In this document: piece by piece, positions 276-31,500 of the stretch | Position numbering within the stretch: the stretch's first letter is position 1 | Layout: the number at the start of each line of letters is the position of its first letter | Virus record (IMG/VR): IMGVR_UViG_3300020470_000123 | Coordinates: 1 to 31,500 of that record | Strand: one strand, 5' to 3' | DNA length: 31,500 bases | DNA from: a virus | Lineage: Duplodnaviria > Caudoviricetes | Position numbers and translations under genes: made by a program | The notes under the pieces: model-generated | Told to the model about the DNA's origin: nothing | The model's input: the letters and a program-made list of their open reading frames with translations, nothing else | The model's database searches: none

Positions 276-781
276 GAGTAATGGAAATCTCTGTCTTTTT
301 TCTTATCTTTTAATTTAGATCCTCTTTGACGTTTTTCGCCTGTTTCGCCATAACCATCTGGATGTTTACCTGCTTTTGCCTTTCCTATATCATCAGGTGT
401 TCTTCCACTCTTATCAGTATAGTGCAATTTAGCACTCTTACCTGCTTTTTTAGTAATAACAGATTCTTGACCATACTTACTACCAAGTTTTCTCATAGTC
501 TTGCCAAACTTTCTTTTTGACATTCCATCAGGTCTTGTTGTATGGTAAGAAACTTCACGGGCATCAGAACCATCATCATACTTATACTTACCAGTAGATT
601 TTCTAAATCCAATACCTTTTCTTTTTAAATCACCTTCAAGTTGTTTTCTTTTTTTACGATTTTCCCTCTCATCATCCCCACGATCTGGAGATATATGTCC
701 AGTATCATGGGTTTCTGATTTACTAAGTGATCTTGATAAACCACCCTCACATAATATTAAAAATTCTTGGAAAGTTATCAT
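272..781 (-). CDS. basic hypothetical phage protein (ISxxR...ENR...L...G...G.Y...E.S...LGxKYGQESV pattern), capsid-targeting-like N-terminus
   Basis: 169-aa ORF, start overlaps the vrlC stop (TAATG). N-terminus is MITFQEFLILCE and the protein is very Lys/Arg rich. Confidence 0.8.
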   Translation of the reverse strand: MITFQEFLILCEGGLSRSLSKSETHDTGHISPDRGDDERENRKKRKQLEGDLKRKGIGFRKSTGKYKYDDGSDAREVSYHTTRPDGMSKRKFGKTMRKLGSKYGQESVITKKAGKSAKLHYTDKSGRTPDDIGKAKAGKHPDGYGETGEKRQRGSKLKDKKKDRDFHYS

Positions 782-16000: not shown

Positions 16001-19000
16001 CCTGTAAATGGATACTGAATAGTTGTTGTATCAGAACCATCTTGAATAGAAACAACCTGATGCATAGCAGAACCACCAGTTTCATTAGATACTCTGACAA
16101 AAGATTTAACTGCAGAATCAATATCTTTATGTGTTCTTGTAACTAATATTGGTGTAGAAGTTCCAGTATGATATGTTGATTCTAATCTACCACTTCTTTC
16201 TGCACCTACAGGTTGACCAGGAACTGAAAATCTATAAGTTCCAATTCCAGCAGTTGTAGTACCTAAACCAACAACATTTGTACTTACATTAATTACTCTC
16301 TTAGTTTGATTTTCACATTCAAAGTAAATTGTTCCAGCATCAAATCTAGCAGTTAGAACTCCAACTTGAGATGAACTATAGCTTATATTTAAAGTATCAA
16401 TATAAGATTCTGTATAGTAAAGATTGGTTCCATCAAAATCAACAATAACTTCACCATAGTTAAGATCTTTAGTAATATCATCCTGTACTACAACAGATGC
16501 ATAGAATCCATTGAAATCAGTATGATCAAATGTTGCTAAAGTTGTTGTAGTAAATCCAGAAACATTATTGTTACTATCAGTATCAGCAATAGCAACTTTA
16601 ACATTAGATGCCTTAAAATCAAGAGATCCTATAGTATCTGTTCCATCAGTAATTCTATTAGTAGTGAAATCTATCTTATAGACTTTAATATCGTGATCTC
16701 TATCATATCTCTCAATAGGATTAAAGTTTAAAGTCTTTCTTTGGAATGAATCGGAAAGTGCTTCAAAATCACCCAATTTATGCTTTGTCCAATCAGTAGT
16801 CTTTTCTACCAAGAAAGCATCATTTGTTGTAGTTAATACAACCATATCGGACAACTGAGCATCCTGTGTGTCTGCATCTACTATCTGTACGAGATATCTT
16901 GCAAAATTACTATCAATTTCTTCAATTTCTGTAAATAAATCTTGTAATCCTTTACTTGAAAACTTACTACTAATATCATCATGAAGAAGAACTCTATTTG
17001 TCTTACATTTTGTATAATCAGTTAATTTTAAATTTTCAAAAGTAACAAATTTAGATTTATTTCCTCTAGTATCATAATCTTTTGCTAAATCAAAATTATT
17101 GATTGTATCAACTCTTCTTTCACCTAAAAGATCAACAACAATAACTGGTACTGATGAAACACTAGTTCCTACACCAACATTTCCAACAACAGTTTCAATT
17201 GATGTATCAGCAAAATTCTTCAGTCCAGATGGATGTACTAATCGGTTTACTGGATCAACAAACTTGTCCCAAGTTATTGGACTCTTAACAGAATATGAAA
17301 GATTTTGGAAATAATCATTATTTGGAACTACCTGAATATCTTCATTTAACTTACCACTATCATCCGTCCATCCATATTCCTGACGATTTGCATAATCAAC
17401 TTCAAATCTTGCTTTATTTTCGACTATAGATGTTATGGTTGCAGAAACATTACTAGTTTCACCTTTTATTCTATATCCAACCTTAAGTCTAAATGTTCCA
17501 TCAATTTTAATAAAATCTTCTCTTGTGTCAGCAATTTTTATATTTTTAGAAATAAATTTATTATTTTCCTCTACAAGTAGTGGTTCATTTATAATAAACT
17601 CTCCTCTTTCTTGAACAGCTTCAAGAATTGGATAATTTTTCTTATTGACAATATTTGCATATCCAGATTGATATGTTTTTGCAATACCTGGATTGGTTGT
17701 TAATCCAGTTATACTATATTTCAATACTGCTGGATCTGAGTTAACAAAATCTTGAACCTTAAAGAATCTAAACTGGTAGTTTGATGAGTTATAACCATCT
17801 CCACCAGTAGCAACACCAGCAGAAACATTACTCTGTGTTCCAATACCTGCTTCACCAAATAATTCAACACCTTCAACAAATACTTCATCTCCAGTTTCAA
17901 ATGGAGCAACTCTAAATCCACCAATAGGTGTTTCTAAGGTACAAGTAACAATACCTGAACCACCACCCTCCATAGAGTTAATTCCAATACCATTTGAATT
18001 ATTAATAGTAATAATTCTATGATTTATTGAACTTAATCCCTGAATTGGTGCAATTACATTAACATTAGATATAGTCTGATATGGCACTTCTGCTAATAAT
18101 GAAGTATCATCAATAATTTCATCCTTCTCAGGATCATATACGATGATATCAGGAGCACTTAGATACTCATTACCACCATCAGTAACAGTTATTGAAACAA
18201 TACTATCTAAATCATCAATTCTAACTACTGGAGAAACAAATGCTTCAGGACTTAATGTTTTATCTGATGAATATTCATATCCATAATCAACAATTCTTAC
18301 ACTATTAATTCTACCTATAGAAGTTGATAATGCTACAATATTAGCATTTTTTCCATTAAGACTAACAATTGATGAGAATTTTGGAAGTTGCTTATAATCA
18401 AATCCTTTTGATATTACTCTAATCTCTTTTATAGGACCAGAAACCGACTTAGATTCTGTGGCATATTCAATTGTATCGCATTGATCTTCTTTATATGATA
18501 GAAGTTCTGGAATTGATCTTGGTGAAACTTTAAATGTATCAGAAGTTATACCAAAAATCTTATAATCTCCACTATAAGCACTATCAACAAAATTAATTTC
18601 TGAATAATTTGGAATTGTAGTGTCTGCTGTACTGATATATCCAGATTTTTCTAATGTATAATACAACCTAGAAGGTGTTGTTTTTGAAAATGCAAGTGAT
18701 ATTGTTGATTCAGTTCCAACACCAACTGTACCTACACCACTTACATTGAAATTATTATTATCCTGAGAACTAATAAATTCATTCTTAAATTCCTTATCAT
18801 AAAATACTTTTAATTCATATCCAAGTAGAGAAGAATCAGAAACATTAAATGTTAACTTAGAATTCTTTATTACATCTATTTGTGGATTAATTGCAGCAAC
18901 TGTATGGTCAACAGCACCAGTAGATGAAATACCAATCAATAATGGTGGATCTACTTGAACATCTTTTAGAGTTTTAGCTACACTAAATTGATCCCTGTTT

Positions 19001-22000
19001 AACTCATAAACAAAGTAACTAGAGGAAATTGGCAACCCACCAACAGAACTTGTATCTTCATCTGCATCATAGAATATTTTATCTCCAGTTTTAAATCCAT
19101 GGCTTGGAACTGTGATACGATTTGTTGTTGTGTCAATTCCTGCAGAAGTAAACCCAACTCTATTAACTAATATAATCTCATGATCTTCATTGTATATCAA
19201 TGAAAGTGGAGCAGTACTTCCTACACCAACAACGGTATTTGGAACTACATTTAAAGAAACTACATCACCATTTGATAAACTATGAGACTCTGTATTTGCA
19301 ATTGCAATATTTGTAGTAACTGTTGATACGATTTTATCAATATCACCAGTAACTTGTTCAAAAGTAGACTCTAAAAGATATTCATAATCATCTGATTCAT
19401 TACCTTTAAAGAATAATCCCTCACTAGTAGTTGCAGCACCAACCTGAGTAACTAAACCAACATAGTTTTGACCTTTATTAATCGCATAAACAATTGAACG
19501 ATCAGTAGTTACATTAGGTAAACTAAAGTTAAGAACTGCTTCCTCAGTATCACCAACAATTAAAGAATTTGCAGTCCCTCTCTTACTAAAGATTAACTTT
19601 TGACCCGTCTTAAATGGATGGTTTGGTAAATATATTGATCTAGTTGGAATAGAAACTTCAGATATAGTATCACCAATTCTATATTCCTTAGTAATACCAC
19701 CACCAACAGTAACACCAGTTCCTACTGCTTGACTTGCATTGAAGTATACTTTATCGTTTATTTTTGATTCAAATTGCTTAGTTTTAACTGGTATGCTGAT
19801 ATGACTATTCAATATATCAATATTAGATCCATAAGTATGTGCAATTCCAGGTCCAAATCTCTTGACTCTAAGGATCGATCCCATATCAAAAATATTCAAT
19901 ACTTTAACTAACTCATTTTGATCTATTTTTAAAGTAGATCCAATAGAAACAGTATCTGGTATAATATTTACATAGATGTCATCAACTCTACCATCAACAA
20001 CTGCATTAGAAGTCATTGATTGTGCTAATCCGATTGTATTAGTACTTACACCAATCTGGAAAGAATCAGTAAGATATACTATAGAACTACTAAGTCCAGA
20101 TACAGATATTGTATCTTTATCATTTAATTCAATAAATGGTAAATAATGTGCTTGTACTTCAGTATTATTCTTCCAAGTAAATACTGCATTCTCATAAGAT
20201 TCTAATTCAGTCTCAATAGAAGAAACTCCTAAACCAACAATACTCTTAACTTGTCCACGAAGACCAGAACCACTAGTTCCAGAATTATCAAAAACGGTAA
20301 AATCTCCAACCTGATATCCAACACCACCATCCAAGACTTCTAATCCGTCAATTTCACCAACAGTTACAGATTCTATTGTACTTAACTGTCTTACACGCTC
20401 ATTAGATTCAACTATAAAGTCATTGTTTGCATCAGGATCACCAACCTTGTATGGGAAAGTGTTTCTAGCAAATGATGTATTATTAAAATCAAATGAATGT
20501 GATAAAGTGGTATTTGATGATATGAAAGGTGAACGATATGTATTACCAATAAAATATGGATACTTGGGTTCTAATTTCCCAATATTTGGACCAGACATTG
20601 CAGTAGTAACACCTGCAAAATATGCATATATTCCATTTGGAAACTCTGGAGTTTTACAGAATCTACCATTATGAACATCAAGATCACCTGAAGAATCGAA
20701 ATAATAATCTTCCGTAAAGAATCCTTCATCAAAAGCATTTGGTCTGTTATTAACTTGTGTCATATCAAGTTTATAACCTGGATTCATTAACCTAACGCCT
20801 GGACCTAATTCATCAGTTTTAGAGAAACCATAAGGACCATATATTGGATTTCCATCATATGCCCATCCTATAATAGGAGAATGTGATGTTCCATCATCAT
20901 TAAATGTATTTGCTATATCTTCATTATATCCATATAAACCAAAATGTAATTCTTCATCATTACCTTCTATACTAAATGTACCAAGTCTCTTTCTATTATC
21001 AACAGTTAACCTTCTAACTCTAGGTTCAAGAAGACCATTAATTCCTGTTGATTTTACATATAATTTTGTTTTGTCAGCACTATAACCAGTACCACCATTA
21101 ATAACTACAACACTAGTTAATTTTCCATCAGTGATAACGGGTCTTAAAATAGCACCATTACCAGTAACACCAGTAGTTGTAATTCCAGTAGCTTCAATTT
21201 CAATTTCTGGTAATGAGAAGTATTCTTTACCTCTATTCAAAACTACAGCATCAACTATCTTACCTTCTACTATAATTGGTTTTATTTCAGCATCTCTTCC
21301 TACTTTTATTTCTACAACAGGATTTTTCTCATGATTTAGAATTGGAGATCCATAATTATCTCCTTCCTCATACAAATATGCCTGAGATATTTCACCTGTA
21401 ACAACAGGAGTGAAATTAAACGATCCTGTAACTGTTGAAGCATAGGAAACCTCACAATTTACAGAAATATCAGGATATTTAAATGTCTGATATCCAATTC
21501 CTGTGCTTGTTAAGTTAACATATTCTCCTCTGTCATAATTTGATTTTGATGGAGTAGTAGCAATTCCTGCATTTGCTAATTTAAAGGAATCATCATCAAT
21601 CTTCATTATATAATAACCAATACCAGTTTCCAATCCACCAATACCAGTACCTGTATTATGATATTCTACTAAATCACCATCACTAAAACCATGATTTTTA
21701 AAGTTTATAGTATCAAATGCTACAGAAACTCCTGATGGTTTTACATTTAATTTTCTATATGTGTATCCAGAACCAGAATTTAATACTTTAACTGACTGTA
21801 ATACATTCTTAGTAGATGTTCTAAACTTATGAATACCACTTGCATTAGTAGCAGTGGACAATCCAATAGTATTGATACCTGTCATTGCATCTTCATAAGA
21901 ATTATAAAGATGAATAGTTCTTGTATTAACAACACTAACATTATATGGAGCACCAGTTGCTAATGTTCCATCTGAAGTATTTGTAGTATCAAATGCAGGA

Positions 22001-24618
22001 CCTATACCAAGATTAGAATTACCATTACTGTCGTAGTAAACTACCTCACCATTTGCCAAATTATGCTCTGTAGTGAATGTAATTGTTTCTTTTTCAATTG
22101 ATAAACCACCAGAAAAGAATATATCTCTACTATCAAAGGATAATTCACGAACTCTTTTACTTACAACAGGTTCTAATTGACATCCAATACCATTACCACC
22201 AGTAATAGAAACTGAAATTACATCATTTATATCAAATTCATGTGGATCTACATAAATCTTTTTAACAGATCCAGTTATAACAGGTTCAATTAAAGCAGTT
22301 GTGCCTGTACTAACTGTGCTATCATCTGTAATAAGTTTAGGTGGATTAATAACATCATAACCAGATCCACCATTATAAACTTCAACAGAAGTTAATGGAC
22401 CATAATAAATGTAATCTTCAGATATTGGTGTTTTTATTTGAACACCATCAATCATCATACCAATATCATTAAGTGGTGTCTCTCCTTTTCCAGAAACAAA
22501 TAAATTTTGATATAATGGGAATTTTCTTAAAACTTTATTTGATGTTAGATTTTTATTATTATGAGATAATTTTGTGAAATTATGATTACCTTCTAATGGT
22601 TGTAAACCTAATTTAACATTAGTTTCAGTACCAATTAAACCTCTTGAAAGATATAATTTAATTTTTCCTGGATTTCTAACTAAAACTTCAACATAATATC
22701 TCTGACCTGATACTAATCCTGGAATTTCTGTTCCATCTGTAGTGTATACAATAGAATCTCCTGTAATGAATTCAATAGGATCATCAAAAACTATATTATT
22801 ATATTCTTCAGTGTCTACATTATAATCCGTAATATGTGTAGCATCTGCTGTTGAAATGCCAGATTTTATGATATTGGTAGAAATTTCATAACTTGGTAAT
22901 GAGTTTGAAGCAACATAACCATCAATATCACCATCAACATAAACATTCAATACATCAGAAAGAATCTGATTATTACCATCTTGCAGTTCAACACCAGAAC
23001 TAGTAGCTTTTTTTAACTTTCTTACTAAATCATATTCCTTTAAAGGATCTGCATTGAATGCATTAATACCAGATAATACTACAGTTTTTGTAAAAGGATC
23101 TATTGAATTTACAATAGCATTAGAAAATACAGCAACAGATTGGTTTCTTTCTAAAATATCAACAATATCATTAACTTTTAAACTTGATTTATCGATTTCT
23201 GTAGATAATATAAAGTTTGGTTTGTTGACATCTTTTATTGGGAATCTACAAGATGTATTGTATATGAAAGAATTGGCAAATATCTGCTTATATGTGTAAT
23301 CAGATTGTGGATTTGGTATCGATTCGCCAACATTCTTAACATATACACTTTCACCTTCATTAACTAATGAAATATCTGAGACTGGTATGAACTTAGAAAG
23401 AACACCAGTAATTCTTAATTCTACTTTTTTCTCTAAATCTCCGTCTTCATAACCAAATATAACCTCATCTGATCTTAAATCAGCACCCATAGGTATATCA
23501 TTGATATTACCAGTACACCCAAAGAACTGATTAATACTCTTTGAAGTATATGAAATAATATTATCACCACATAAAACTGTTCCAGTTTCATGAAAACCGA
23601 CTGTTGAATCAACTGTAATAATAGTTGAATTTGCTCCTGTCGCTTCTAAAACTCTAGTTTTACCTGGAATAGTAAATGTTCCTTCAATTAAGTCTCTATC
23701 ATTAAATCCAACAAATAAAGAAAGTTTATAATATGCCTTATTTTCTCTTGTTAATATCTCAACTTCCGATACAGAAGCATTTGTTCTTAAATCAGTAGAT
23801 TTATAGATTGTTTGACCTACTAACTTTGCTGGATCACCACTAATAGGATCTGCAATAACAACTTCTCTACGAATAAACTCCGCATCAGAAGGTTTAATTA
23901 AACGCTCTTCTAAATCTAATACCTGAGATTCTACACCATAAAGAACTTTAAATAATATTTTTATAGACTCTTCAATACCTTTTGATTGATAAAAAGTTCT
24001 TGCATGCTTTATAAAATTACCAACATCAAGGTCTGGAGTAAAATCGTTATCCTCTAAACCAGGTAAAAATGTTCTTTTTAACTTTTTATAGAACTCTTGA
24101 ATGAAAAGTACACTTAGATTAGTAACTGATTGTGTACCAGTAACATCTGCAGTATGATTTGCAGCAGTTGTATTCTCAAAAACTAGACTTTCTTTATTAA
24201 CATCGTCAATAAAAGAAGAAATTCCTACATTATAACCAGTAATACCACTAAATCCACGAATACATCCTGTAAATGAAGTATCTGTCTTACCAGTATATGT
24301 GATAATTTCATCGTCAATCTTTAAAAGACCATATTCAGCAGGATATCCCTTTGTTGAAGAAACTTCAATAGTAGTATCTGTAGCACTAATATCTGATAAA
24401 AGAGTAGTGACACCAACTACAACCTCTGGAACTAGGTTATCAACCTTGATATACTGATCAAAGTTACTAATTAAGTCTGATGGAGCACCTTGTGCTTCTT
24501 GTGAAATATAATATTGCTTAAAAAACTCAGTTGCCTTGGGAAAGTCGCTAATTAAAAACTCAGGTAACTGACTTTCAATTATTTTATTGACTTTTACTCT
24601 ATTATCTACATTTAACAT
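10039..24618 (-). CDS. gp7: giant T4-like baseplate wedge initiator gp7 with many inserted repeat domains
   Basis: 4859-aa uninterrupted ORF between gp6 and gp8. N-terminal SQLPEF..., FYQSKG.EESIKILFK.LYG, and an internal NDYFQNLSYSVKS...LVHPSG motif typical of gp7. Confidence 0.88.
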   Translation of the reverse strand: MLNVDNRVKVNKIIESQLPEFLISDFPKATEFFKQYYISQEAQGAPSDLISNFDQYIKVDNLVPEVVVGVTTLLSDISATDTTIEVSSTKGYPAEYGLLKIDDEIITYTGKTDTSFTGCIRGFSGITGYNVGISSFIDDVNKESLVFENTTAANHTADVTGTQSVTNLSVLFIQEFYKKLKRTFLPGLEDNDFTPDLDVGNFIKHARTFYQSKGIEESIKILFKVLYGVESQVLDLEERLIKPSDAEFIRREVVIADPISGDPAKLVGQTIYKSTDLRTNASVSEVEILTRENKAYYKLSLFVGFNDRDLIEGTFTIPGKTRVLEATGANSTIITVDSTVGFHETGTVLCGDNIISYTSKSINQFFGCTGNINDIPMGADLRSDEVIFGYEDGDLEKKVELRITGVLSKFIPVSDISLVNEGESVYVKNVGESIPNPQSDYTYKQIFANSFIYNTSCRFPIKDVNKPNFILSTEIDKSSLKVNDIVDILERNQSVAVFSNAIVNSIDPFTKTVVLSGINAFNADPLKEYDLVRKLKKATSSGVELQDGNNQILSDVLNVYVDGDIDGYVASNSLPSYEISTNIIKSGISTADATHITDYNVDTEEYNNIVFDDPIEFITGDSIVYTTDGTEIPGLVSGQRYYVEVLVRNPGKIKLYLSRGLIGTETNVKLGLQPLEGNHNFTKLSHNNKNLTSNKVLRKFPLYQNLFVSGKGETPLNDIGMMIDGVQIKTPISEDYIYYGPLTSVEVYNGGSGYDVINPPKLITDDSTVSTGTTALIEPVITGSVKKIYVDPHEFDINDVISVSITGGNGIGCQLEPVVSKRVRELSFDSRDIFFSGGLSIEKETITFTTEHNLANGEVVYYDSNGNSNLGIGPAFDTTNTSDGTLATGAPYNVSVVNTRTIHLYNSYEDAMTGINTIGLSTATNASGIHKFRTSTKNVLQSVKVLNSGSGYTYRKLNVKPSGVSVAFDTINFKNHGFSDGDLVEYHNTGTGIGGLETGIGYYIMKIDDDSFKLANAGIATTPSKSNYDRGEYVNLTSTGIGYQTFKYPDISVNCEVSYASTVTGSFNFTPVVTGEISQAYLYEEGDNYGSPILNHEKNPVVEIKVGRDAEIKPIIVEGKIVDAVVLNRGKEYFSLPEIEIEATGITTTGVTGNGAILRPVITDGKLTSVVVINGGTGYSADKTKLYVKSTGINGLLEPRVRRLTVDNRKRLGTFSIEGNDEELHFGLYGYNEDIANTFNDDGTSHSPIIGWAYDGNPIYGPYGFSKTDELGPGVRLMNPGYKLDMTQVNNRPNAFDEGFFTEDYYFDSSGDLDVHNGRFCKTPEFPNGIYAYFAGVTTAMSGPNIGKLEPKYPYFIGNTYRSPFISSNTTLSHSFDFNNTSFARNTFPYKVGDPDANNDFIVESNERVRQLSTIESVTVGEIDGLEVLDGGVGYQVGDFTVFDNSGTSGSGLRGQVKSIVGLGVSSIETELESYENAVFTWKNNTEVQAHYLPFIELNDKDTISVSGLSSSIVYLTDSFQIGVSTNTIGLAQSMTSNAVVDGRVDDIYVNIIPDTVSIGSTLKIDQNELVKVLNIFDMGSILRVKRFGPGIAHTYGSNIDILNSHISIPVKTKQFESKINDKVYFNASQAVGTGVTVGGGITKEYRIGDTISEVSIPTRSIYLPNHPFKTGQKLIFSKRGTANSLIVGDTEEAVLNFSLPNVTTDRSIVYAINKGQNYVGLVTQVGAATTSEGLFFKGNESDDYEYLLESTFEQVTGDIDKIVSTVTTNIAIANTESHSLSNGDVVSLNVVPNTVVGVGSTAPLSLIYNEDHEIILVNRVGFTSAGIDTTTNRITVPSHGFKTGDKIFYDADEDTSSVGGLPISSSYFVYELNRDQFSVAKTLKDVQVDPPLLIGISSTGAVDHTVAAINPQIDVIKNSKLTFNVSDSSLLGYELKVFYDKEFKNEFISSQDNNNFNVSGVGTVGVGTESTISLAFSKTTPSRLYYTLEKSGYISTADTTIPNYSEINFVDSAYSGDYKIFGITSDTFKVSPRSIPELLSYKEDQCDTIEYATESKSVSGPIKEIRVISKGFDYKQLPKFSSIVSLNGKNANIVALSTSIGRINSVRIVDYGYEYSSDKTLSPEAFVSPVVRIDDLDSIVSITVTDGGNEYLSAPDIIVYDPEKDEIIDDTSLLAEVPYQTISNVNVIAPIQGLSSINHRIITINNSNGIGINSMEGGGSGIVTCTLETPIGGFRVAPFETGDEVFVEGVELFGEAGIGTQSNVSAGVATGGDGYNSSNYQFRFFKVQDFVNSDPAVLKYSITGLTTNPGIAKTYQSGYANIVNKKNYPILEAVQERGEFIINEPLLVEENNKFISKNIKIADTREDFIKIDGTFRLKVGYRIKGETSNVSATITSIVENKARFEVDYANRQEYGWTDDSGKLNEDIQVVPNNDYFQNLSYSVKSPITWDKFVDPVNRLVHPSGLKNFADTSIETVVGNVGVGTSVSSVPVIVVDLLGERRVDTINNFDLAKDYDTRGNKSKFVTFENLKLTDYTKCKTNRVLLHDDISSKFSSKGLQDLFTEIEEIDSNFARYLVQIVDADTQDAQLSDMVVLTTTNDAFLVEKTTDWTKHKLGDFEALSDSFQRKTLNFNPIERYDRDHDIKVYKIDFTTNRITDGTDTIGSLDFKASNVKVAIADTDSNNNVSGFTTTTLATFDHTDFNGFYASVVVQDDITKDLNYGEVIVDFDGTNLYYTESYIDTLNISYSSSQVGVLTARFDAGTIYFECENQTKRVINVSTNVVGLGTTTAGIGTYRFSVPGQPVGAERSGRLESTYHTGTSTPILVTRTHKDIDSAVKSFVRVSNETGGSAMHQVVSIQDGSDTTTIQYPFTGATTSGLGTFGTVTVGDYNELNFYPDTSETTLIEVQAYNEVLNTINDFANEPLSLKYGPLEKSIILSAYDGVNGTRANKVNFDLTFEGTPIYSKIFNPADLVLEQTGFNIPNHFFNNNEEIKYIPGSTFVGIGSTAISIGSTANNVGVVTDILPSTLFVKAIDSNNIELYTQKEYITSGLPVKITGVGEGNAHKFEMTNKLSKTVIGLDGIVQQPITFTAIEHTLDGAIGIGNSQFVLSGISSVQPRDVLKVGPEYMKVEQIGFSSLPQGVINKAEDVALGICTLPVVKVRRGSLGIGATEHADGAAARVHRGSFNIVDSTAWFLDPPKGNTRERRNETNLPYVRAEFSGRTFLRQNYTTNMVFDDISDNFTGIGRTYTMTVGGANTETGVGIGNGILFINGVFQTPLTVNNAGNNYEFEQDTNVGVSSVVFTGISSENGQMMQSEFDINQNQLPRGGLIVSMGSTPGLGYAPLVGAKVKVESVENTNRFANRSINGIVGLGTSSGLTIGIQTAAYDNTTGILTVTTNKVHGFSLGSPNTVKLKGLEFKCPTYTVGQPITGTTYDPNTGDMVIKITNHGLSNGDSIKLKEESITFSCGFGGGGQVNKSYPRSTDPAFDKYMTISNVTTDTFKVNVLFGISPTNTDAHTFVGASPDCVQSLNYVGVTTSLFQDERPNAKDKERALQLVGIVSERSFEVQVGLTSIAHIYHGGGWAYEFWNDLTMGSGYREPVAIGVTDILYDHKFVSSADDSVTANTGTQYTPSTVDYHSENGELVLTVGTHNLQAATEHTPDSVTYSASTGKITVTMAGHPFVNGDLVKIKDYSIALKCEMDNYGSVHKYPRPSDPISGKWVAVQNKTTNTFKIDVGTSPTVTFTPSDVDYDPVTGLMELHIGSHTLRPGTSIKIATNSLGFTCDVDNNTSTKTYPRSSDPYNDTAIKIESVTDTTITVQVLSVQPSTNTARHTFVSAVPNCISTGGNYTHQFDSVVPGGILKASNTVTIVDNSLTFTCSRDSHRSPHTYPRTTDPASGQTLGVERIANNSFTVNVGTGGGGGRGAIVEAKVATNKHKFVSSSAGSFTIGSGGVLTPTNAKYNPATGELVVIKTSHGVGGATTITPSDVSYNEITGDLTITKNNHGFAQFDTILIEDNSLTFTCTKDGNVTRHHYPRPTDYASGRWLFITNASLNTFTVNVNPNPSSEKYPHTFIQPAVNGCIQKSNETVTIASNSLVFTCEHDLHQTLHSYPRTTDPAFGVSLPVGKATADTFRIMVGKSPAGTGGALDLVIKDPGGKYVNPEIQLPDPIYENVPIVGISRLGVGKTTDTGNNLLMNMAVGAARTSVGIARSMFEISEFEIARPGHSFKIGDKFKPQGLVVDKRLQKPIQEFELEVVETFSDFFSAWQFGELDFIDSISLMQTGSRRRFPLFFNGQLLSFEVDEESALSDQIDLNAVLLIFVNGVLQTPNISYQFEGGTTFTFTEAPMASDKVDVFFYKGEEGVDIEIVDVNETIKIGDDIHLIKHPDFLNPNVEPFTETQEKDRPVKSILGSDLVETTVYTGIGITEFYAKPLDWTKQKTDFWIKGDLISKAREQLEPQIYPTAKIIASVGSTTGSTTAETDGIFVDDAESFFYEEAPLHLKVEDRYGVSIESVDALLLPPANFIGAAITAIVSNKGDIESLVINEEGNGYVGAAITLSISAPIGVGIGTTERNKYAVTGISTFAEANATVTDGKITGYNITNIGLGYTHSNPPQVVIPDAYYGSEKILEIKNVQGFAGIITGISTSAGTNGHPLALRFAFRADKPTTDLKAGHYVYISDTPFTVGGAKTDAEYLPFNDGSIQPNNNRFIAGIGGDPTTSVDKNDNEIIAIGSGFMDNIYKVSEIAYTSGENGEIVCNIKNTNDVITGLAATGFHDAGGVNIDEPTNIGLTTTYGKISWGRLYNATRAESPISIGVTGLTVDSGLSTFPTIQRRSYARSSLKGLRNTGAIRIQIS
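12190..14480 (-). repeat. degenerate ~90-100 aa protein repeats within gp7 (Y(D/N)xxTG...H....I...SLxFTC...YPRxxDP)
   Basis: Six YPR motifs: KSYPRSTDP, HKYPRPSDP, KTYPRSSDP, HTYPRTTDP, HHYPRPTDY, HSYPRTTDP. An identical 17-mer tcagttgttcttggata occurs at 12263-12279 and 12929-12945. Boundaries are approximate. Confidence 0.85.
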
Positions 24619-26977: not shown

Positions 26978-27011
26978 CGAAAAGGCAATATTTAGTACTA
27001 TTTACATCTTT

Positions 27012-27019
27012 TATTTATG
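27012..27019 (-). promoter_or_regulatory. late promoter variant CATAAATA upstream of gp25
   Basis: Plus-strand tatttatg is CATAAATA on minus, matching the NATAAATA cyanophage late consensus. It is intergenic, just downstream of a terminator and 34 nt upstream of the gp25 ATG. Confidence 0.75.
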
Positions 27020-27035
27020 ACAACAACTAGACATT

Positions 27036-27056
27036 AAAAAACCCCCTTTCGGGGGT
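27036..27056 (-). terminator. Rho-independent terminator
   Basis: Minus strand reads ACCCCC-GAAA-GGGGGT followed by a T-run (GNRA tetraloop), a few nt after the stop of the 49-aa ORF. Confidence 0.88.
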
Positions 27057-27061
27057 GAGGG

Positions 27062-27211
27062 TTATTTACCTTGTCCTCTGTACTTTTTCTTTGCTTTGTT
27101 TCGAGACGAAGCGGAGTACTTAGTATGTTTTCCGTTTCCTTGTCGAGTCTTCTTCGGGATTGATTCTAACTGAACATTTCCCCATGCACCTGTTTTGGTT
27201 CTTACTGCCAT
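27062..27211 (-). CDS. small, highly basic conserved cyanophage protein (49 aa; not in ORF track)
   Basis: Manual translation: MAVRTKTGAWGNVQLESIPKKTRQGNGKHTKYSASSRNKAKKKYRGQGK*. GAGGA RBS upstream, ATG directly after the previous TAA, terminator downstream. Confidence 0.85.
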   Translation of the reverse strand: MAVRTKTGAWGNVQLESIPKKTRQGNGKHTKYSASSRNKAKKKYRGQGK

Positions 27212-27382
27212 TTAGTCCTCTTTAATAATAATTTCAGTTCTTAGACCTTGTGGGTTATGAGATCCATTATCATAGAACTCATAGGCAAGGTCTTCCATTG
27301 CGTTAAAGTATTCATCTTGGGTGAGGTTCTTAAAGAGAATCTTCTCACCCTCATAGATGTTATATAACTCTTGTTTTTTCAT
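27212..27382 (-). CDS. small hypothetical protein (56 aa; not in ORF track), probable paralog of 28706-28876
   Basis: Manual translation: MKKQELYNIYEGEKILFKNLTQDEYFNAMEDLAYEFYDNGSHNPQGLRTEIIIKED*. AGGA just upstream, overlaps the glycosyltransferase 3' end. Confidence 0.8.
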   Translation of the reverse strand: MKKQELYNIYEGEKILFKNLTQDEYFNAMEDLAYEFYDNGSHNPQGLRTEIIIKED

Positions 27383-28115
27383 GTCCTACACGAACACGAG
27401 GATCGCACCAGATTTCAAAACCTGCTTCTTTCGCATCTAAACAGAACGAGACGTCTTCGCCACACATATCCTGAACTTCGCCAGATTCAAAGACTTGCAT
27501 CTTTGGAGCGAACCAAGGGTATGGAAGACCTTCGTGTTCAAATACTCCTTTCTTAATAAGTAACCATCCGAATCCTGCGTAGTCCACAGTAAATGGTTTC
27601 TTTCTTTTCGAGATGCTTTCGATGGTTTCGTGATTCATAACGCCCCCATTAGATCTAAAGTCATCTTCTTCCATCCAGTGTGCAACCGAGGTGGTTTTGC
27701 CGTCCTCAGTACAATACCAACCAGACGCTATGTCCTTATCCATCAGAACGATCTGCCAGAACTTCTCTGTGTTAAACACAATGTCGCTATCAATCCATAA
27801 CTGATAGTCATAGTTTAACTTACCGTCCCAAGGTAACTGATCAGGTCCCCGAAGAACATTAGCACCTAAGCACTTGCATCGTGCAAAGTTGACCATTGAT
27901 GAGTAATCCTGTGAGATTTGGATACTTGCTCCACTTTGAACCAGATCAAAGCATAGCTGTACAAAACTCTTCAAAAATGCATATGATACTCCTCTACCAG
28001 GTAAGCAGAATACAACTGTCTTACCTTTCACCATCTCCCTTGCTTTATCATAGTCAAAATCTGGTTCCTTTTTGACAACGGGAGATTTAGCTTTAACTGT
28101 AAATCCTTTCGCCAT
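27360..28115 (-). CDS. conserved cyanophage GT-A fold (GT2-like) glycosyltransferase
   Basis: 251 aa. DxD motif in LWIDSD, VDYAGFGWLLIKKGVFE, GEDVSFC...G..IWCDP.V.VGH, the GT2-type catalytic ED and C-terminal H. Confidence 0.75.
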   Translation of the reverse strand: MAKGFTVKAKSPVVKKEPDFDYDKAREMVKGKTVVFCLPGRGVSYAFLKSFVQLCFDLVQSGASIQISQDYSSMVNFARCKCLGANVLRGPDQLPWDGKLNYDYQLWIDSDIVFNTEKFWQIVLMDKDIASGWYCTEDGKTTSVAHWMEEDDFRSNGGVMNHETIESISKRKKPFTVDYAGFGWLLIKKGVFEHEGLPYPWFAPKMQVFESGEVQDMCGEDVSFCLDAKEAGFEIWCDPRVRVGHEKTRVI

Positions 28116-28147
28116 AACTTAGTGTAATTACCTTCACATATTACACT

Positions 28148-28155
28148 AATTTATA
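28148..28155 (-). promoter_or_regulatory. possible late promoter TATAAATT
   Basis: One mismatch to TATAAATA, intergenic, 32 nt upstream of the glycosyltransferase ATG. Confidence 0.5.
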
Positions 28156-28719
28156 CTATTTGTCAATGATGATCATACTCTGATCTACAAAATCAAAGTT
28201 TAGATTAACAGAGATTATTGTTTTTCTTTTACCTTTTAATGGTGCAGAACGATGTATTATATTAGATGGAAAGGTAACAATATCTCCTTCATTCATATCT
28301 AACTGTACAATCTGCTTGTTTTTTCTATCATAAAACTCTGTACTACTTTGACTATTCTCCAATTCTAAGTTATAGACAAAAGAAACATTAGAATGTGGAT
28401 GTATATGCCAACCGTGTGTATCCTTCTTTATATACTGCTGATACCAACAAGATTCTACTTCACTATCTTCCATACAATAATAATTTAATAACTCATTAAA
28501 GTATTCCTGTGCATTCTCTGCAAATAGCATATAATACTCAGGGGCAATATCTCTGTCCGAAAAGAAATCAGTTCTATCAATATGATCTAAGGATGCAATA
28601 TATTTCTTTCCGTGAATATCATTTTTAATGATATCTAATAACTTATCCTTAATTAAACTATGTGTTTTTAATTGATACTTCCAGATATCCATATCTAAAG
28701 TATCATCAATAACTTGCAT
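28156..28719 (-). CDS. putative 2OG-Fe(II) oxygenase (TIGR02466/2OG-FeII_Oxy_5-like)
   Basis: 187 aa with W.Q.Y....H.WHIH....S.VY.L, EGDIVTFPS.I.H.S and a distal R...IS.N, the pattern of phage 2OG-Fe(II) oxygenases. Confidence 0.8.
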   Translation of the reverse strand: MQVIDDTLDMDIWKYQLKTHSLIKDKLLDIIKNDIHGKKYIASLDHIDRTDFFSDRDIAPEYYMLFAENAQEYFNELLNYYCMEDSEVESCWYQQYIKKDTHGWHIHPHSNVSFVYNLELENSQSSTEFYDRKNKQIVQLDMNEGDIVTFPSNIIHRSAPLKGKRKTIISVNLNFDFVDQSMIIIDK

Positions 28720-28876
28720 CTGCCATTATACTACTATCAAATACAATCGACTCATAACTAAGTTCATCTTTATAATACGAATGATATAACCTTCCCCATA
28801 TAAGATCAAACTCTGATTGATCCAAGTCTTTAAACAATACCTCTCCTCTTAAGTATATGTGAAAGGTATTAGGCAT
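28706..28876 (-). CDS. small hypothetical protein (56 aa, start reassigned to MPNTF)
   Basis: The internal ATG at 28876 overlaps the end of the AbrB-like ORF. The sequence resembles 27212-27382. Confidence 0.7.
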   Translation of the reverse strand: MPNTFHIYLRGEVLFKDLDQSEFDLIWGRLYHSYYKDELSYESIVFDSSIMADASY

Positions 28877-29039
28877 CTTCTGTAATAATAAGTTCTTCAC
28901 CATCTGTTTTAAAATTTACTTCCGTATCTTCAAACCATCCTTGATCATTTACTACCCATTCAGGTATTCTAACAAAATATTCACCAGATACTGTATCGAC
29001 TTCTATGGGGCGTTTATCTTCTGGGTTATTTTTTAGCAT
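28869..29039 (-). CDS. AbrB/MazE/SpoVT-like DNA-binding domain protein (56 aa)
   Basis: GEYFVRIPEWVVNDQGWFEDTEVNFKTDGEELII fits the AbrB swapped-hairpin pattern (G..v.IP..i...lgw..G..v......d..lii). ATG at 29039 is preferred over the TTG at 29060. Confidence 0.7.
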   Translation of the reverse strand: MLKNNPEDKRPIEVDTVSGEYFVRIPEWVVNDQGWFEDTEVNFKTDGEELIITEDA

Positions 29040-29060
29040 TACAACTATTCTGTTTTTCAA

Positions 29061-29258
29061 TTATATATCAAATACGGTTTTCTCGCAAGTCGACCCTGTG
29101 GGCATTTTTTAACAGCGAAAAAAAATTTGAAGTTTGATGGAATATTGTTCTCGCTTTCGTAACACTTTGTAGGTTAGGGTCTCTATGCTTTTTTATAACG
29201 GGGGCAGGGGGCGAACCCCCACACACGGGGGCACTGCCAATACACGAACGACTAACCC
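29061..29258. other. structured non-coding boundary between early region and downstream genes
   Basis: About 200 nt without a credible ORF. Contains G5/C5 tracts forming GGGGG-TTCG-CCCCC on minus, A/T tracts, and a repeated TTCTCGC at 29080 and 29148. Confidence 0.55.
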
Positions 29259-29471
29259 TTACTGCACATCACCCAAGGCAGTTGCACAGGTGTTAGCGGT
29301 GATGCCATTATTAGAAGCACACCTCACTCTGCTGCTGCCACCCTTAATGCGTGATGCCCATTTGTTCGCTGCTCTTCCGTGTGCAGTCTTAAGGCGGGTC
29401 ACCTTCCATACTCTCCCGTTGATCTCAACCTCAGTTGTTGGAACTGTTAAACCGAATGGAGTTGAAGTCAT
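29259..29471 (-). CDS. small basic early hypothetical protein (70 aa)
   Basis: ORF begins 24 nt downstream of the TATAAT of element A. Confidence 0.75.
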   Translation of the reverse strand: MTSTPFGLTVPTTEVEINGRVWKVTRLKTAHGRAANKWASRIKGGSSRVRCASNNGITANTCATALGDVQ

Positions 29472-29495
29472 TTGTGATTTGTTTGGTATGTACTT

Positions 29496-29553
29496 ATTAT
29501 AAAACCCTCACCCCACGAATGGGGCAAGGGTGGACCAGTTTGTTTACTGGCAT
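29496..29553 (-). promoter_or_regulatory. early promoter/stem-loop element A
   Basis: Dyad ggaccagt-ttgttt-actggcat (29532-29553), 12-bp hairpin with UUCG loop and two G.U pairs (29504-29531), TATAAT at 29501-29496. Spacer is 30 nt. Confidence 0.8.
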
Positions 29554-29726
29554 CTATCCTCAAACATTTGCTGTGCTTTTCTTTCTATTGCAACTAATGT
29601 GCCTGAAGGTTGCCTCCAACATAACTCATTTAACTCATCATCTGTTAACTGGTTATGAACACGGAACTCTTCCCACGCTTCATCGTGGCACATTTCCATT
29701 AGTGCTTCGTGATTTGCAGTACTCAT
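29544..29726 (-). CDS. small acidic early hypothetical protein (60 aa; start reassigned to MSTANH)
   Basis: The track start at 29750 is only 2 nt from the -10 box. The second ATG (29726) fits the 21-26 nt -10-to-ATG distance seen at the other four elements. Confidence 0.7.
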   Translation of the reverse strand: MSTANHEALMEMCHDEAWEEFRVHNQLTDDELNELCWRQPSGTLVAIERKAQQMFEDRCQ

Positions 29727-29752
29727 TTGAATGGTTTGCTTATTACTCATTT

Positions 29753-29810
29753 AGTATAGCAAAAAAAGAGGGGGTGTGAACCCCCTCTGTGCCAATTTAA
29801 TAATCGTTTA
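29753..29810 (-). promoter_or_regulatory. early promoter/stem-loop element B (terminator-like hairpin plus -10)
   Basis: Dyad gtgccaat-ttaata-atcgttta (29789-29810, distal arm degenerate), GAGGGGGT-TCAC-ACCCCCTC followed by T7, TATACT at 29758-29753. Spacer is 30 nt. Confidence 0.8.
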
Positions 29811-29913
29811 AGATTGAGGTTCTTCTGCGTGGTGCATATGTGAGAACCTCTTCCTTTTGCTTACGCTCTGCTTCTTTGAGTGCTGCGTAGATCTCAGATG
29901 TTAAAGGTTGCAT
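29797..29913 (-). CDS. small early protein (38 aa; not in track)
   Basis: MQPLTSEIYAALKEAERKQKEEVLTYAPRRRTSILNDY*. ATG immediately follows the previous TAA and the stop lies within dyad B. Confidence 0.65.
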   Translation of the reverse strand: MQPLTSEIYAALKEAERKQKEEVLTYAPRRRTSILNDY

Positions 29914-30048
29914 TTAAAAAAGGCAGGTTGTTGTAAAAAGGATTATACTAAGGATAGCAAGTGCATTACGCTCTTCACGAACATCCTTAACATTTTGTAA
30001 GGCATCATAGATTTGTGCCTTAGTGTTTTTCAAAGTGACTTGAGTCAT
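29914..30048 (-). CDS. small early protein with C-terminal hydrophobic tail (44 aa; not in track)
   Basis: MTQVTLKNTKAQIYDALQNVKDVREERNALAILSIILFTTTCLF*. Tightly packed between neighbouring ORFs. Confidence 0.65.
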   Translation of the reverse strand: MTQVTLKNTKAQIYDALQNVKDVREERNALAILSIILFTTTCLF

Positions 30049-30051
30049 TTG

Positions 30052-30189
30052 TTAAAAATCGTTGTTAGATTTCAGATAGTCATCAAGGTCTCTCTTTGTA
30101 TCATCTGAAAGGGTTTCAGAGATTGCGTCCTCCATGAGTGCTGCTATAGCATCATCAGTAACGAAATCATCAAAACGTGGGAAAGACAT
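30052..30189 (-). CDS. small acidic early protein (45 aa; not in track)
   Basis: MSFPRFDDFVTDDAIAALMEDAISETLSDDTKRDLDDYLKSNNDF*. ATG is 21 nt downstream of the -10 of element C. Confidence 0.7.
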   Translation of the reverse strand: MSFPRFDDFVTDDAIAALMEDAISETLSDDTKRDLDDYLKSNNDF

Positions 30190-30210
30190 TGAATTAAATC
30201 TGATATGTGA

Positions 30211-30269
30211 ATAATAGGCGGTTGAGAGGGCAACCGCAACCCATGTTGTGCCAGTTTAATTACTGGTTA
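30211..30269 (-). promoter_or_regulatory. early promoter/stem-loop element C
   Basis: Dyad gtgccagt-ttaatt-actggtta (30248-30269), hairpin GCGGTTG-CCCTCT-CAACCGC, TATTAT at 30216-30211. Spacer is 31 nt. Confidence 0.8.
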
Positions 30270-30486
30270 GGTTATCAAAGAAATCCTGTGGTAATGTTTT
30301 AGCATTAACCCCGTCTAACCATTTGTTGATGTGGCGACTGGTGGTTACGCTCCACTTACGCTCTGTTCTGTAGTACTCATAGTCTGGAGTCCTAGCAGCG
30401 ACAGGAGTGTTGTAAGAGAAGAAAACTTGATGTCCGTCGGCAAGGTTAATCTGAGTTTGATTAGTGCCGAGTTTGAGGAGTTGCAT
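30256..30486 (-). CDS. widespread small phage early protein (FSYxTPVA...SxTTSRHINKWL type), 76 aa
   Basis: ORF fills the space between elements D and C. The motif is recalled from many phage hypothetical proteins. Confidence 0.8.
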   Translation of the reverse strand: MQLLKLGTNQTQINLADGHQVFFSYNTPVAARTPDYEYYRTERKWSVTTSRHINKWLDGVNAKTLPQDFFDNLTSN

Positions 30487-30511
30487 TTAGAATCCTTTGG
30501 TTAACAATTTA

Positions 30512-30569
30512 ATAATAGCAACTCAGAGAGGAGTTGCCACTCAGGGTGTGCCAGTTAGATAACCTGCAC
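30512..30569 (-). promoter_or_regulatory. early promoter/stem-loop element D
   Basis: Dyad gtgccagt-tagata-acctgcac (30548-30569), hairpin GCAACTC-CTCTCT-GAGTTGC, TATTAT at 30517-30512. Spacer is 30 nt. Confidence 0.8.
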
Positions 30570-31064
30570 ACCGTACTGATGAATTTCTTTCTGGGATATG
30601 GTAACACCTATTCGGGGGTCTTTGGCATTGCCTGACCTCTTCTTAGGGTACTGCTTCTTTGCCTTTGGAAGTACAATACTTAAGACATCATTACAGTTTA
30701 GTTTCCATACTTCGGCAATCTTTCCACCCTCATACCGTGCGTAGTAGTGGTTTTGATACTTGCCGATCTTATCCTCTATGAGGTATTTTTCCTGGAGTTC
30801 CCAGGTGTCCTGCACAGAGATGCCATTGTAAGTTGCGTTGATAGTCTTTGAAATGGTTGACTTGTATTCGCAACCTCCGTCAGCATCAAAGGCATCTGCT
30901 CCAGAGTAGTCATCAGCAACCTTATGTCCCAACAACCCTGCCATGTGGATCTCACGGGAACGGGCATAACTGAAAGGATCGCCCCAACCATTGTCCTCAC
31001 ACAGAGAATAAAGTTGTTCATAAAGGTTTCGGTACTGGACTTCGGGTGATGTGGTGTGCATCAT
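30555..31064 (-). CDS. PvuII-like PD-(D/E)xK restriction endonuclease-fold protein (169 aa)
   Basis: Start reassigned to ATG 31064 (GGAGGT RBS, ATGA overlap with upstream ORF). Catalytic GADAFDADGGCEYKS, with end-to-end resemblance to recalled PvuII (GNDAVDNAGQEYELKS; IAKY...FAIY.G..I..IY.L...D; NPKI...HG). Confidence 0.7.
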   Translation of the reverse strand: MMHTTSPEVQYRNLYEQLYSLCEDNGWGDPFSYARSREIHMAGLLGHKVADDYSGADAFDADGGCEYKSTISKTINATYNGISVQDTWELQEKYLIEDKIGKYQNHYYARYEGGKIAEVWKLNCNDVLSIVLPKAKKQYPKKRSGNAKDPRIGVTISQKEIHQYGVQVI

Positions 31065-31237
31065 CTCACCTCCGAAGAGATGAGATCCCACACCTGAGAG
31101 AAACGCTCAGAGGTAAAGTTTGAATTCTCCTCTGGATATTCTTCTGCCTCCTCATCCCATTTTTCAGGGAGATCGAAGCAGTATGCCTGAGTGAAAACTT
31201 CGTTAATCAATCTGAGATCTTCTTGAGAGAGATTCAT
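31061..31237 (-). CDS. small acidic early protein (58 aa; not in track)
   Basis: MNLSQEDLRLINEVFTQAYCFDLPEKWDEEAEEYPEENSNFTSERFSQVWDLISSEVR*. ATG is 21 nt after the -10 of element E, and the gene is translationally coupled to the nuclease. Confidence 0.75.
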   Translation of the reverse strand: MNLSQEDLRLINEVFTQAYCFDLPEKWDEEAEEYPEENSNFTSERFSQVWDLISSEVR

Positions 31238-31258
31238 TGGATTTGTGTAACTGTTAAT

Positions 31259-31316
31259 ATAATAACCCCATCCAGTTAAGAATGGGGTTAGAGTGTGCCA
31301 GTTTAATAATTGGCAC
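31259..31316 (-). promoter_or_regulatory. early promoter/stem-loop element E
   Basis: Near-perfect dyad gtgccagt-ttaata-attggcac (31295-31316), hairpin TAACCCCATTC-TTAACT-GGATGGGGTTA, TATTAT at 31264-31259. Spacer is 30 nt. Confidence 0.85.
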
Positions 31317-31500
31317 AGAAGTTATTTGCCCAATCAGGTAATCCCCATCCTCCGATGCCAAACTCTTTGCGATGCACAAGGCGTTGATAGATCTTTACAA
31401 TCTCATTCAATTCCTCTATCTTGAGATCATCACCCTCCCAACACTCAAGGTAATCGGTGTTAGCAACATCAGGGTTTCCATCTGCAAAGGTGGGGCAACT
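31303..31500 (-). CDS. 3' part of an early hypothetical protein (start outside window)
   Basis: Open frame from the window edge: SCPTFADGNPDVANTDYLECWEGDDLKIEELNEIVKIYQRLVHRKEFGIGGWGLPDWANNFCANY*. The stop lies inside dyad E. Confidence 0.7.
   Translation of the reverse strand, partial: SCPTFADGNPDVANTDYLECWEGDDLKIEELNEIVKIYQRLVHRKEFGIGGWGLPDWANNFCANY

Follow-up and report, generated by a model that had tools for sequence, protein, structure and literature searches.

The virus record analysed here (IMGVR_UViG_3300020470_000123, positions 1 to 31,500, a 31.5-kb stretch of DNA referred to below as the window) carries on its minus strand, between small genes, five copies of a 58-base unit that is probably a composite signal, combining an early promoter, a terminator for the upstream gene, and a joint resembling the promoter/stem-loop (PeSL) units at which other phages shuffle gene cassettes. 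Read on the gene strand, the unit comprises a distal arm (8 bases), a spacer (6), and a proximal arm (8), which together form an inverted repeat, the dyad; these are followed by 30–31 nt that hold a hairpin, a -10 box, and an A/C-rich leader that runs to the ATG. The T4-type baseplate genes gp8, gp6, and gp25 in the window, and the 76–78% identity of positions 27000–31500 to the Prochlorococcus myoviruses P-SSM5 and P-SSM2, mark it as a T4-like cyanomyophage near P-SSM2. The array sits in a small-gene region upstream of gp25, in an order that matches P-SSM5 and P-SSM2.

The five units are real. An earlier, sequence-only reading of the window had placed them on the minus strand at 29532, 29789, 30248, 30548, and 31295, at 30, 30, 31, 30, and 30 nt from a -10 box and with no consistent -35, and these positions, distances, and boxes (Table 1) are borne out, as are the last residues of the upstream proteins (RCQ, LNDY, LTSN, GVQVI, and CANY) and the presence of a TAA within all five units at plus-strand offsets +12, +8, +8, +7, and +8 (7, 11, 11, 12, and 11 on the gene strand). 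Its description of every copy as a dyad holds for four, which differ from its consensus at 1, 2, 3, and 3 positions, but not for the copy at 29789, which differs at 7; the distal arm there, TAAACGAT, is not recognisable, and this copy is therefore a half-site. A chance match to the dyad consensus with 3 mismatches occurs at 8915, where it is accompanied by no -10 box. The combination of a proximal arm with a -10 box at 30 or 31 nt is found five times in the window, compared with no occurrence in 294 and a single occurrence in 6 of 300 dinucleotide shuffles, and a hairpin folds between dyad and -10 box in 5 of 5 units (z of -2.3 to -7.4 for the whole unit). A generic repeat finder run on the window did not return the unit among its top families, and an Rfam search of the window found nothing.

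The same unit is present in P-SSM2, P-SSM5, P-SSM4, P-HM2, and Syn9. Among 357 strict proximal arms from 83 loci, the -10 box lies at 30 nt in 93, at 31 nt in 59, at 32 nt in 12, and at 41 nt in 8, no other distance being represented by more than 4. The distal arm, which was not used in detection, still reads GTG[CA]CA[G]T at frequencies of 0.57–0.91 per column in 92 unique units, and a profile search recovered 255 units in 0.95 Mb, compared with 0 in one shuffle of each locus. Whole-genome pattern matches number 16 in P-SSM2, 15 in P-SSM5, 7 in Syn9, and 17 in P-HM2 (control, 1 each), counts that include some chance matches inside genes; in Syn9, three units (48559, 51001, and 52997) fall in the small-gene region and further matches are spread over the genome. 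Bidirectional units, in which one dyad has a -10 box at 30 or 31 nt on both sides, as expected of a symmetric protein site, account for 68 of the 320 unique unit-strands (143 phage loci) whose upstream DNA is long enough to judge.

The link to early transcription comes from P-HM2, in which 20 of 242 genes were classed as Early in light according to the S2 Table of Thompson 2016 (PMC5082946). All 20 lie in runs of genes headed by a unit, the distant pair 135–136 included, with 065 overlapping a bidirectional unit; the Early genes are clustered, so that these are not 20 independent trials. Seven of the 10 genes that directly follow a unit are Early (class A; PHM2_057, 060, 061, 064, 066, 068, and 135), and the other three are Mid (class B; 053, 148, and 198/hli). 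The scan covered 49.7 of 183.8 kb, picked from genome-wide pattern matches with those at 52618, 121453, 138324, and 142570 left out, and includes one strong unit within gp46 and one weak match within gp7. In the window itself, the 76-amino-acid (aa) gene of the array is homologous to Early PHM2_060. Judged by these expression classes, the unit is likely an early-promoter element of T4-like cyanophages, which lends support to the view, already taken in the sequence-only reading, of an early-gene promoter whose dyad would be bound by a protein. That reading had also drawn a parallel to CRP-type sites; this is ruled out, as the arm spacing and the centre of the dyad (at about -53.5) differ from CRP geometry.

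Doron et al. (2016, ISME J 10:1437) reportedly described a novel regulatory element at early genes of T4-like cyanophages (Syn9 and P-TIM40). The present unit is most likely this element, because it heads the Early genes of P-HM2 and has three copies among the small genes of Syn9. The 2016 element is cited in PMC5780444, and no description of its motif was found in passages of that article or of PMC9004378, PMC1524935, PMC5312081, PMC8707807, PMC11726456, PMC9692554, PMC7368042, and PMC6778093.

The hairpin accompanies the upstream gene. It is present (minimum free energy of -6 or below) in 89% of the 121 spacers that follow a stop codon within the dyad, compared with 22% of 59 bidirectional spacers and 25% of 36 spacers with no upstream gene; because its frequency follows the upstream gene, the hairpin appears to belong to that gene, as a terminator would. 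The median distance from stop codon to stem is 15 nt (n = 46), compared with 12 nt for a small set of terminator-like hairpins elsewhere in the same loci (n = 20). This arrangement offers an ordinary cause for the position of the stop codons. An upstream open reading frame (ORF) is present at 216 of the 252 non-bidirectional units and ends within the dyad at 161, before it at 36, and after it at 19; when the 57 upstream families are counted instead, the usual stop position is within the dyad for 28, before it for 24, and after it for 5. The pattern is real, and it is explained, as we read these sequences, by genes that end as far ahead of their terminator stem as is usual, the stem being confined between the dyad and the -10 box, so that no capture mechanism is needed. 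The proposal that the dyad spacer supplies the stop codon of a captured gene is not supported: stop triplets occur equally in 42 of 44 bidirectional dyads, where genes as a rule do not end (1.27 frames of 3 compared with 1.45); the 161 in-dyad stops fall at 8 offsets and in all three frames, a single gene family using several offsets; 37 of them are TAG or TGA; and the distal arm moves with the upstream gene. At offset 11, the TAA coincides with the first bases of the half-site.

Comparison of related phages further indicates that gene cassettes are swapped at the units. The 183 junctions resolve into 74 upstream/downstream family pairs, and close relatives switch partner gene within the unit. 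In a first set of 111 junctions, close pairs with the same upstream gene and different downstream genes show an identity of 0.92 in the distal arm, 0.76 in the spacer, 0.46–0.57 in the hairpin, and background in the leader, and pairs that share only the downstream gene show the reverse trend. Window unit 1 is itself a chimera, equal to the left unit of a relative (L176) up to a shared AACTGG and to the right unit thereafter, with an extra cassette of ~253 bp between the two units of the relative; this is a clean cassette deletion or insertion, and the 6-bp shared stretch begins at the last spacer base. In P-SSM2, the hairpin seen in window unit 4 is displaced downward by one cassette. Crossovers were mapped in 10 usable trio groups of 13 (3 were dropped for 12–25 mismatches, one being a family mis-assignment): 7 of the 10 fall in the dyad and 3 in the 3′ part of the hairpin, the -10 box, or the leader, a small sample in which two of the 7 dyad crossovers serve as each other's parents. 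When non-allelic units are compared (237 pairs), their longest exact match falls in the spacer and proximal arm in 63% and in the -10 box and leader in 29%, and the split of 7 to 3 therefore agrees with the expectation for short-homology recombination. The route is likely to be ordinary short-homology recombination rather than an integron-like machine. The identity switches and mapped chimeras uphold the PeSL-like swapping that the sequence-only reading had suggested, and the case that it named against itself, breakpoints unrelated to the dyad, is contradicted by these chimeras.

In the mechanism that we propose, the inverted repeat of 22–24 bp would bind a dimeric activator that replaces the missing -35 of an early promoter, and the hairpin between dyad and -10 box would terminate the transcript of the upstream gene. 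In a tightly packed region, the upstream gene would end ~8–15 nt before the stem and hence inside the dyad, whose AT-rich centre would offer a stop codon and whose half-site itself begins with TAA. Crossovers in two conserved blocks (the proximal arm, and the -10 box plus leader) would delete, insert, or exchange gene-plus-promoter cassettes, and would fall in the units because these are the only sequence common to unrelated neighbouring genes.

The best candidate for the protein that binds the dyad, put forward tentatively on the identity of the half-site, is the host regulator PMM1637/PlmA. PMM1637 is a GntR regulator that binds and activates a 21–22-nt palindrome, CGRE1, of Prochlorococcus yfr2 promoters (Lambrecht 2018, PMC6191309). 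As listed in Table S1 of that paper, the CGRE1 half-site is the phage half-site (TAACTGGCAC / GTG[AC]CA[AG]TT) with the order of the halves reversed: the host arrangement is ACTGGCAC-N2-GTGACAAT, the listed site reading ACTGGCAC-AT-GTGACAAT, whereas the phage arrangement is GTGCCAGT-N6-ACTGGCAC. A pattern derived from CGRE1 matched 70 stretches in GTDB, 61 of them cyanobacterial. At 37 loci that a motif rule classed as carrying a Yfr2-like RNA, the downstream CGRE1 half begins 63–67 nt before the 5′ end of the RNA, the same place as the phage distal arm, which begins at the predicted -64/-65; the host block that follows this half (positions 14–15) begins with A (0.97) and then C/G, as the phage proximal arm does, and the rest of the arm is not kept. 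The Rfam family Cyano-1 (Yfr2) was found on 2 of 2 loci submitted from the 37 and on 0 of 6 submitted from the remaining CGRE1 loci. The abutting host arrangement ACTGKCAC-N2-GTGMCART is absent from 5 of 5 phage genomes (P-SSM2, Syn9, P-HM2, P-SSM4, and G009), and a bridging form with three half-sites was not found in 40 viral contigs that carry a host-type site, the best third half matching at 5 of 8 positions. A search that left Doron 2016 and subscription journals outside found no paper linking PMM1637 to cyanophage early promoters. A wider reading, which we hold to be somewhat improbable, is that T4-like cyanophages borrow PMM1637/PlmA, a light- and nitrogen-stress regulator of the host, with the reversed 8-6-8 dyad replacing the -35 at every early promoter, host stress gating the start of infection, and the docking sites doubling as shuffling joints.

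Several observations weigh against the composite-signal account or its parts. The identity of the unit with the 2016 element is one that we infer. RNA sequencing runs contain 0.06–0.12 of the words of the window. The upstream CGRE1 half is missing in the phage units (7 of 8 positions match in 1 of 267). The yfr5 promoter, carrying one full half and a phage-like second half with 2 mismatches, was neither shifted nor activated in the data given in PMC6191309. Of the 121 tandem spacers, only 52 combine a strong stem with at least 5 T in the tail, which means that some of the hairpins may not be terminators, and the set of ordinary terminators used for comparison is small. Of 180 genes extending as far as the dyad, 161 end within it, compared with ~42% expected for a random frame, which implies selection or sorting beyond composition. 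For 6 of the 7 dyad crossovers, and for the crossover in the window itself, the mapped interval reaches the spacer or its edge, as those left by a site-specific enzyme would. The unit counts, finally, are not independent, as the contigs are related.

With regard to the binder, the dyad might instead be recognised by a phage-encoded or virion-injected protein, which could act as an activator or as a repressor that silences early genes. This possibility, to which we give limited credence, bears on which protein binds and can be reconciled with the composite signal. It is favoured by the yfr5 result, by the lack of enrichment of the phage half-site arrangement in 5 host genomes (6 one-mismatch sites compared with 5 in the control), and by an AbrB/MazE-like 63-aa gene (28869–29060, minus strand, PHROG 661; ESM cosine 0.92–0.94) just below the array, whose product is one candidate for such a protein. 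However, the earliest genes would have to be read before phage proteins exist, a search of 5 phage genomes detected no GntR domain, and the phage half-site is letter for letter that of the host, with the distal arm placed as the host half is.

It is very unlikely that the units are promoters and terminators only, with gene gain and loss in the region unrelated to them. Regulatory anatomy does explain the geometry and the stop overlap without recombination, and four Logan DNA assemblies, in which contigs are fragmented and joints have short sides or foreign letters, contain no clean joint at a unit (loose ends at 29528, 29753, and 31317, at the edges of the hairpin, -10 box, and dyad, are too weak to count). 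The 74 family pairs, the partner switches within the unit, the mapped chimeras, and the displaced hairpin module in P-SSM2 contradict it.

Some integrases, such as those of some conjugative transposons, tolerate unlike spacers. The integron-like capture favoured by the sequence-only reading, taken here in a form in which the dyad would be the crossover site of a host-encoded or spacer-tolerant tyrosine recombinase and would supply the stop of captured genes, is nevertheless hardly credible: the 8-6-8 symmetry, the 161 of 216 upstream stops in the dyad, the dyad crossovers (6 of 7 at the spacer or its edge), and the clean event within 6 bp at window unit 1 would fit it, but only 6 of 237 same-locus pairs have the same spacer (122 spacers among 222 dyads), 3 of 10 crossovers lie at the -10 box or leader, stops vary in offset and frame even within one family, dyads can be bidirectional or precede core genes that are not cassettes (PHM2_135/cobS and hli), and the internal order GTT...AAC is opposite to that of attC cores, which belong to far longer sites. 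In domain searches in which controls were detected, in which the window phage was represented by its 31.5 kb, and which left host recombinases outside, the tyrosine-recombinase domain PF00589 was absent from all 10 virus records examined (P-SSM2, P-SSM5, Syn9, P-HM2, P-SSM4, two 99–100% IMG/VR genomes, and three fragments), the first 7 of which are complete or nearly so, and the serine-recombinase domain PF00239 was found in 0 of 4.

Among known systems, the composite signal resembles the PeSLs of RB49/phi1, PST/T4, and nt-1/KVP40 as presented in Arbiol 2010 (PMC2839356) and Comeau 2014 (PMC4122927). PeSLs are composite terminator/promoter units between small accessory genes of a variable region, as the window units probably are too, and in both, cassettes are gained, lost, and exchanged with crossovers inside the units and chimeras as products. 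In terms of promoter anatomy, PeSLs have a -35/-10 sigma70 promoter (a Mot box in PmSLs) with the stem-loop upstream of it, whereas the window unit lacks a -35, carries an inverted repeat at about -64 to -43, and has its stem-loop inside the promoter. PeSL mini-circles have been demonstrated in RB49-type phages, with crossovers mapped between the -10 box and the Shine-Dalgarno sequence or ATG (Arbiol 2010, PMC2839356), whereas the swaps described here are known from assembled contigs; for the ORFan region of S-PM2, PeSLs were judged unlikely by Puxty 2015 (PMC4503421). With integron attC arrays, the units share tandem small genes and stop codons that overlap a repeated imperfect palindrome. 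They differ from those arrays in that no integrase was found in the records searched, every cassette comes with a promoter, the sites are much shorter than attC and have no conserved core order, and crossovers fall in more than one block. From these comparisons, the units seem to work like PeSLs while departing from them in promoter anatomy, and to depart from integrons in the features tested.

Further CGRE1-like sequences were seen in hosts and viruses. About 24 cyanobacterial CGRE1 matches lack a Yfr2 motif (L091, L095–L097, and others), and most such matches in Prochlorococcus precede, at a similar distance, a conserved stretch that starts TGTGTGAGTGAGTTG, with no Rfam match in those scanned. 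The host-type palindrome occurs exactly in 40 viral contigs (L214–L253), often beside tRNA genes (5 of 20 scanned) and once near a wcaG RNA, and frequently precedes a recurring stretch that looks structured and matches no Rfam family. In P-HM2, the dyad unit at 168098 precedes the hli cluster of high-light response genes; the same stress induces PMM1637 targets.

The features of the array are collected in Table 1. The gene below 29789 probably starts at 29726 rather than at 29750, because the ATG at 29750 lies upstream of the predicted transcription start site and PHROG 14136 covers residues 9–68. No array gene has a Pfam match over the cut-off, and the PHROGs matches are to families of unknown function.

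Table 1. Coordinates of units and genes in the array, from the window end downward
Feature	Positions	Strand	Remarks
Small gene, 3′ part	31303..31500	-	PHROG 13427; cut by window end; stop within dyad 5
Unit 5 dyad	31295..31316	-	1 mismatch to consensus
Unit 5 hairpin	31263..31290	-	terminator-like
Unit 5 -10 box	31259..31264	-	TATTAT
Small gene, 58 aa	31061..31237	-	no family match over cut-off
Gene, 169 aa	30555..31064	-	PHROG 35715; weak PvuII-like nuclease lead; stop within dyad 4
Unit 4 dyad	30548..30569	-	2 mismatches
Unit 4 spacer to -10 box, 30 nt	30518..30547	-	contains hairpin
Unit 4 -10 box	30512..30517	-	TATTAT
Gene, 76 aa	30256..30486	-	PHROG 5643; homologue of early gene PHM2_060; stop within dyad 3
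Unit 3 dyad	30248..30269	-	3 mismatches
Unit 3 hairpin	30218..30237	-	
Unit 3 -10 box	30211..30216	-	TATTAT
Three abutting small genes, 45, 44, and 38 aa	29797..30189	-	gaps of 3 and 0 nt; last stop within unit 2
Unit 2 half-site	29789..29810	-	proximal half-site only; degenerate distal arm; 7 mismatches in all
Unit 2 hairpin	29767..29788	-	followed by T7 run; classical intrinsic terminator shape
Unit 2 -10 box	29753..29758	-	TATACT
Small gene	29544..29750	-	PHROG 14136; likely start 29726; stop within dyad 1
Unit 1 dyad	29532..29553	-	chimera of two neighbouring units of a relative with one extra cassette
Unit 1 hairpin	29504..29531	-	with T run
Unit 1 -10 box	29496..29501	-	TATAAT
Small gene, 70 aa	29259..29471	-	last in array

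The 169-aa protein contains a D...EYK motif. By ESM Atlas features, it matches a PvuII-type endonuclease cluster (cosine 0.95, 185 features in common) in which 94% of members carry PF09225; the protein has no Pfam match and no PDB sequence match, and an early nuclease is a possible assignment. Below the array, the 200-nt intergenic stretch 29060–29260 contains A/T runs and G/C-rich inverted repeats and is deeply covered and very variable in Logan contigs; P-SSM2 has a gene of the same size as the AbrB/MazE-like gene, likewise just below its array. Elsewhere on the minus strand, 272–781 matches an S-adenosylmethionine lyase family (PF23780, E 1.9e-7), possibly an anti-restriction gene, and 781–8412 and 10039–24618 are very long structural ORFs of 2543 and 4859 aa, the second of which occupies the gp7 position and has internal repeats.

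The class of element appears to have been published, as the early element of T4-like cyanophages, and shuffling of the PeSL type is known in other T4-like phages. What is added here is, first, that stop codons within the dyad should not be read as integron capture and, second, a named candidate, host PMM1637/PlmA, for the protein that reads these promoters, and one that can be tested, as purified protein, an R50A control, and an Escherichia coli reporter already exist. If PMM1637/PlmA does fill this role, the start of cyanophage infection would be tied to the light and nitrogen sensing of the host.

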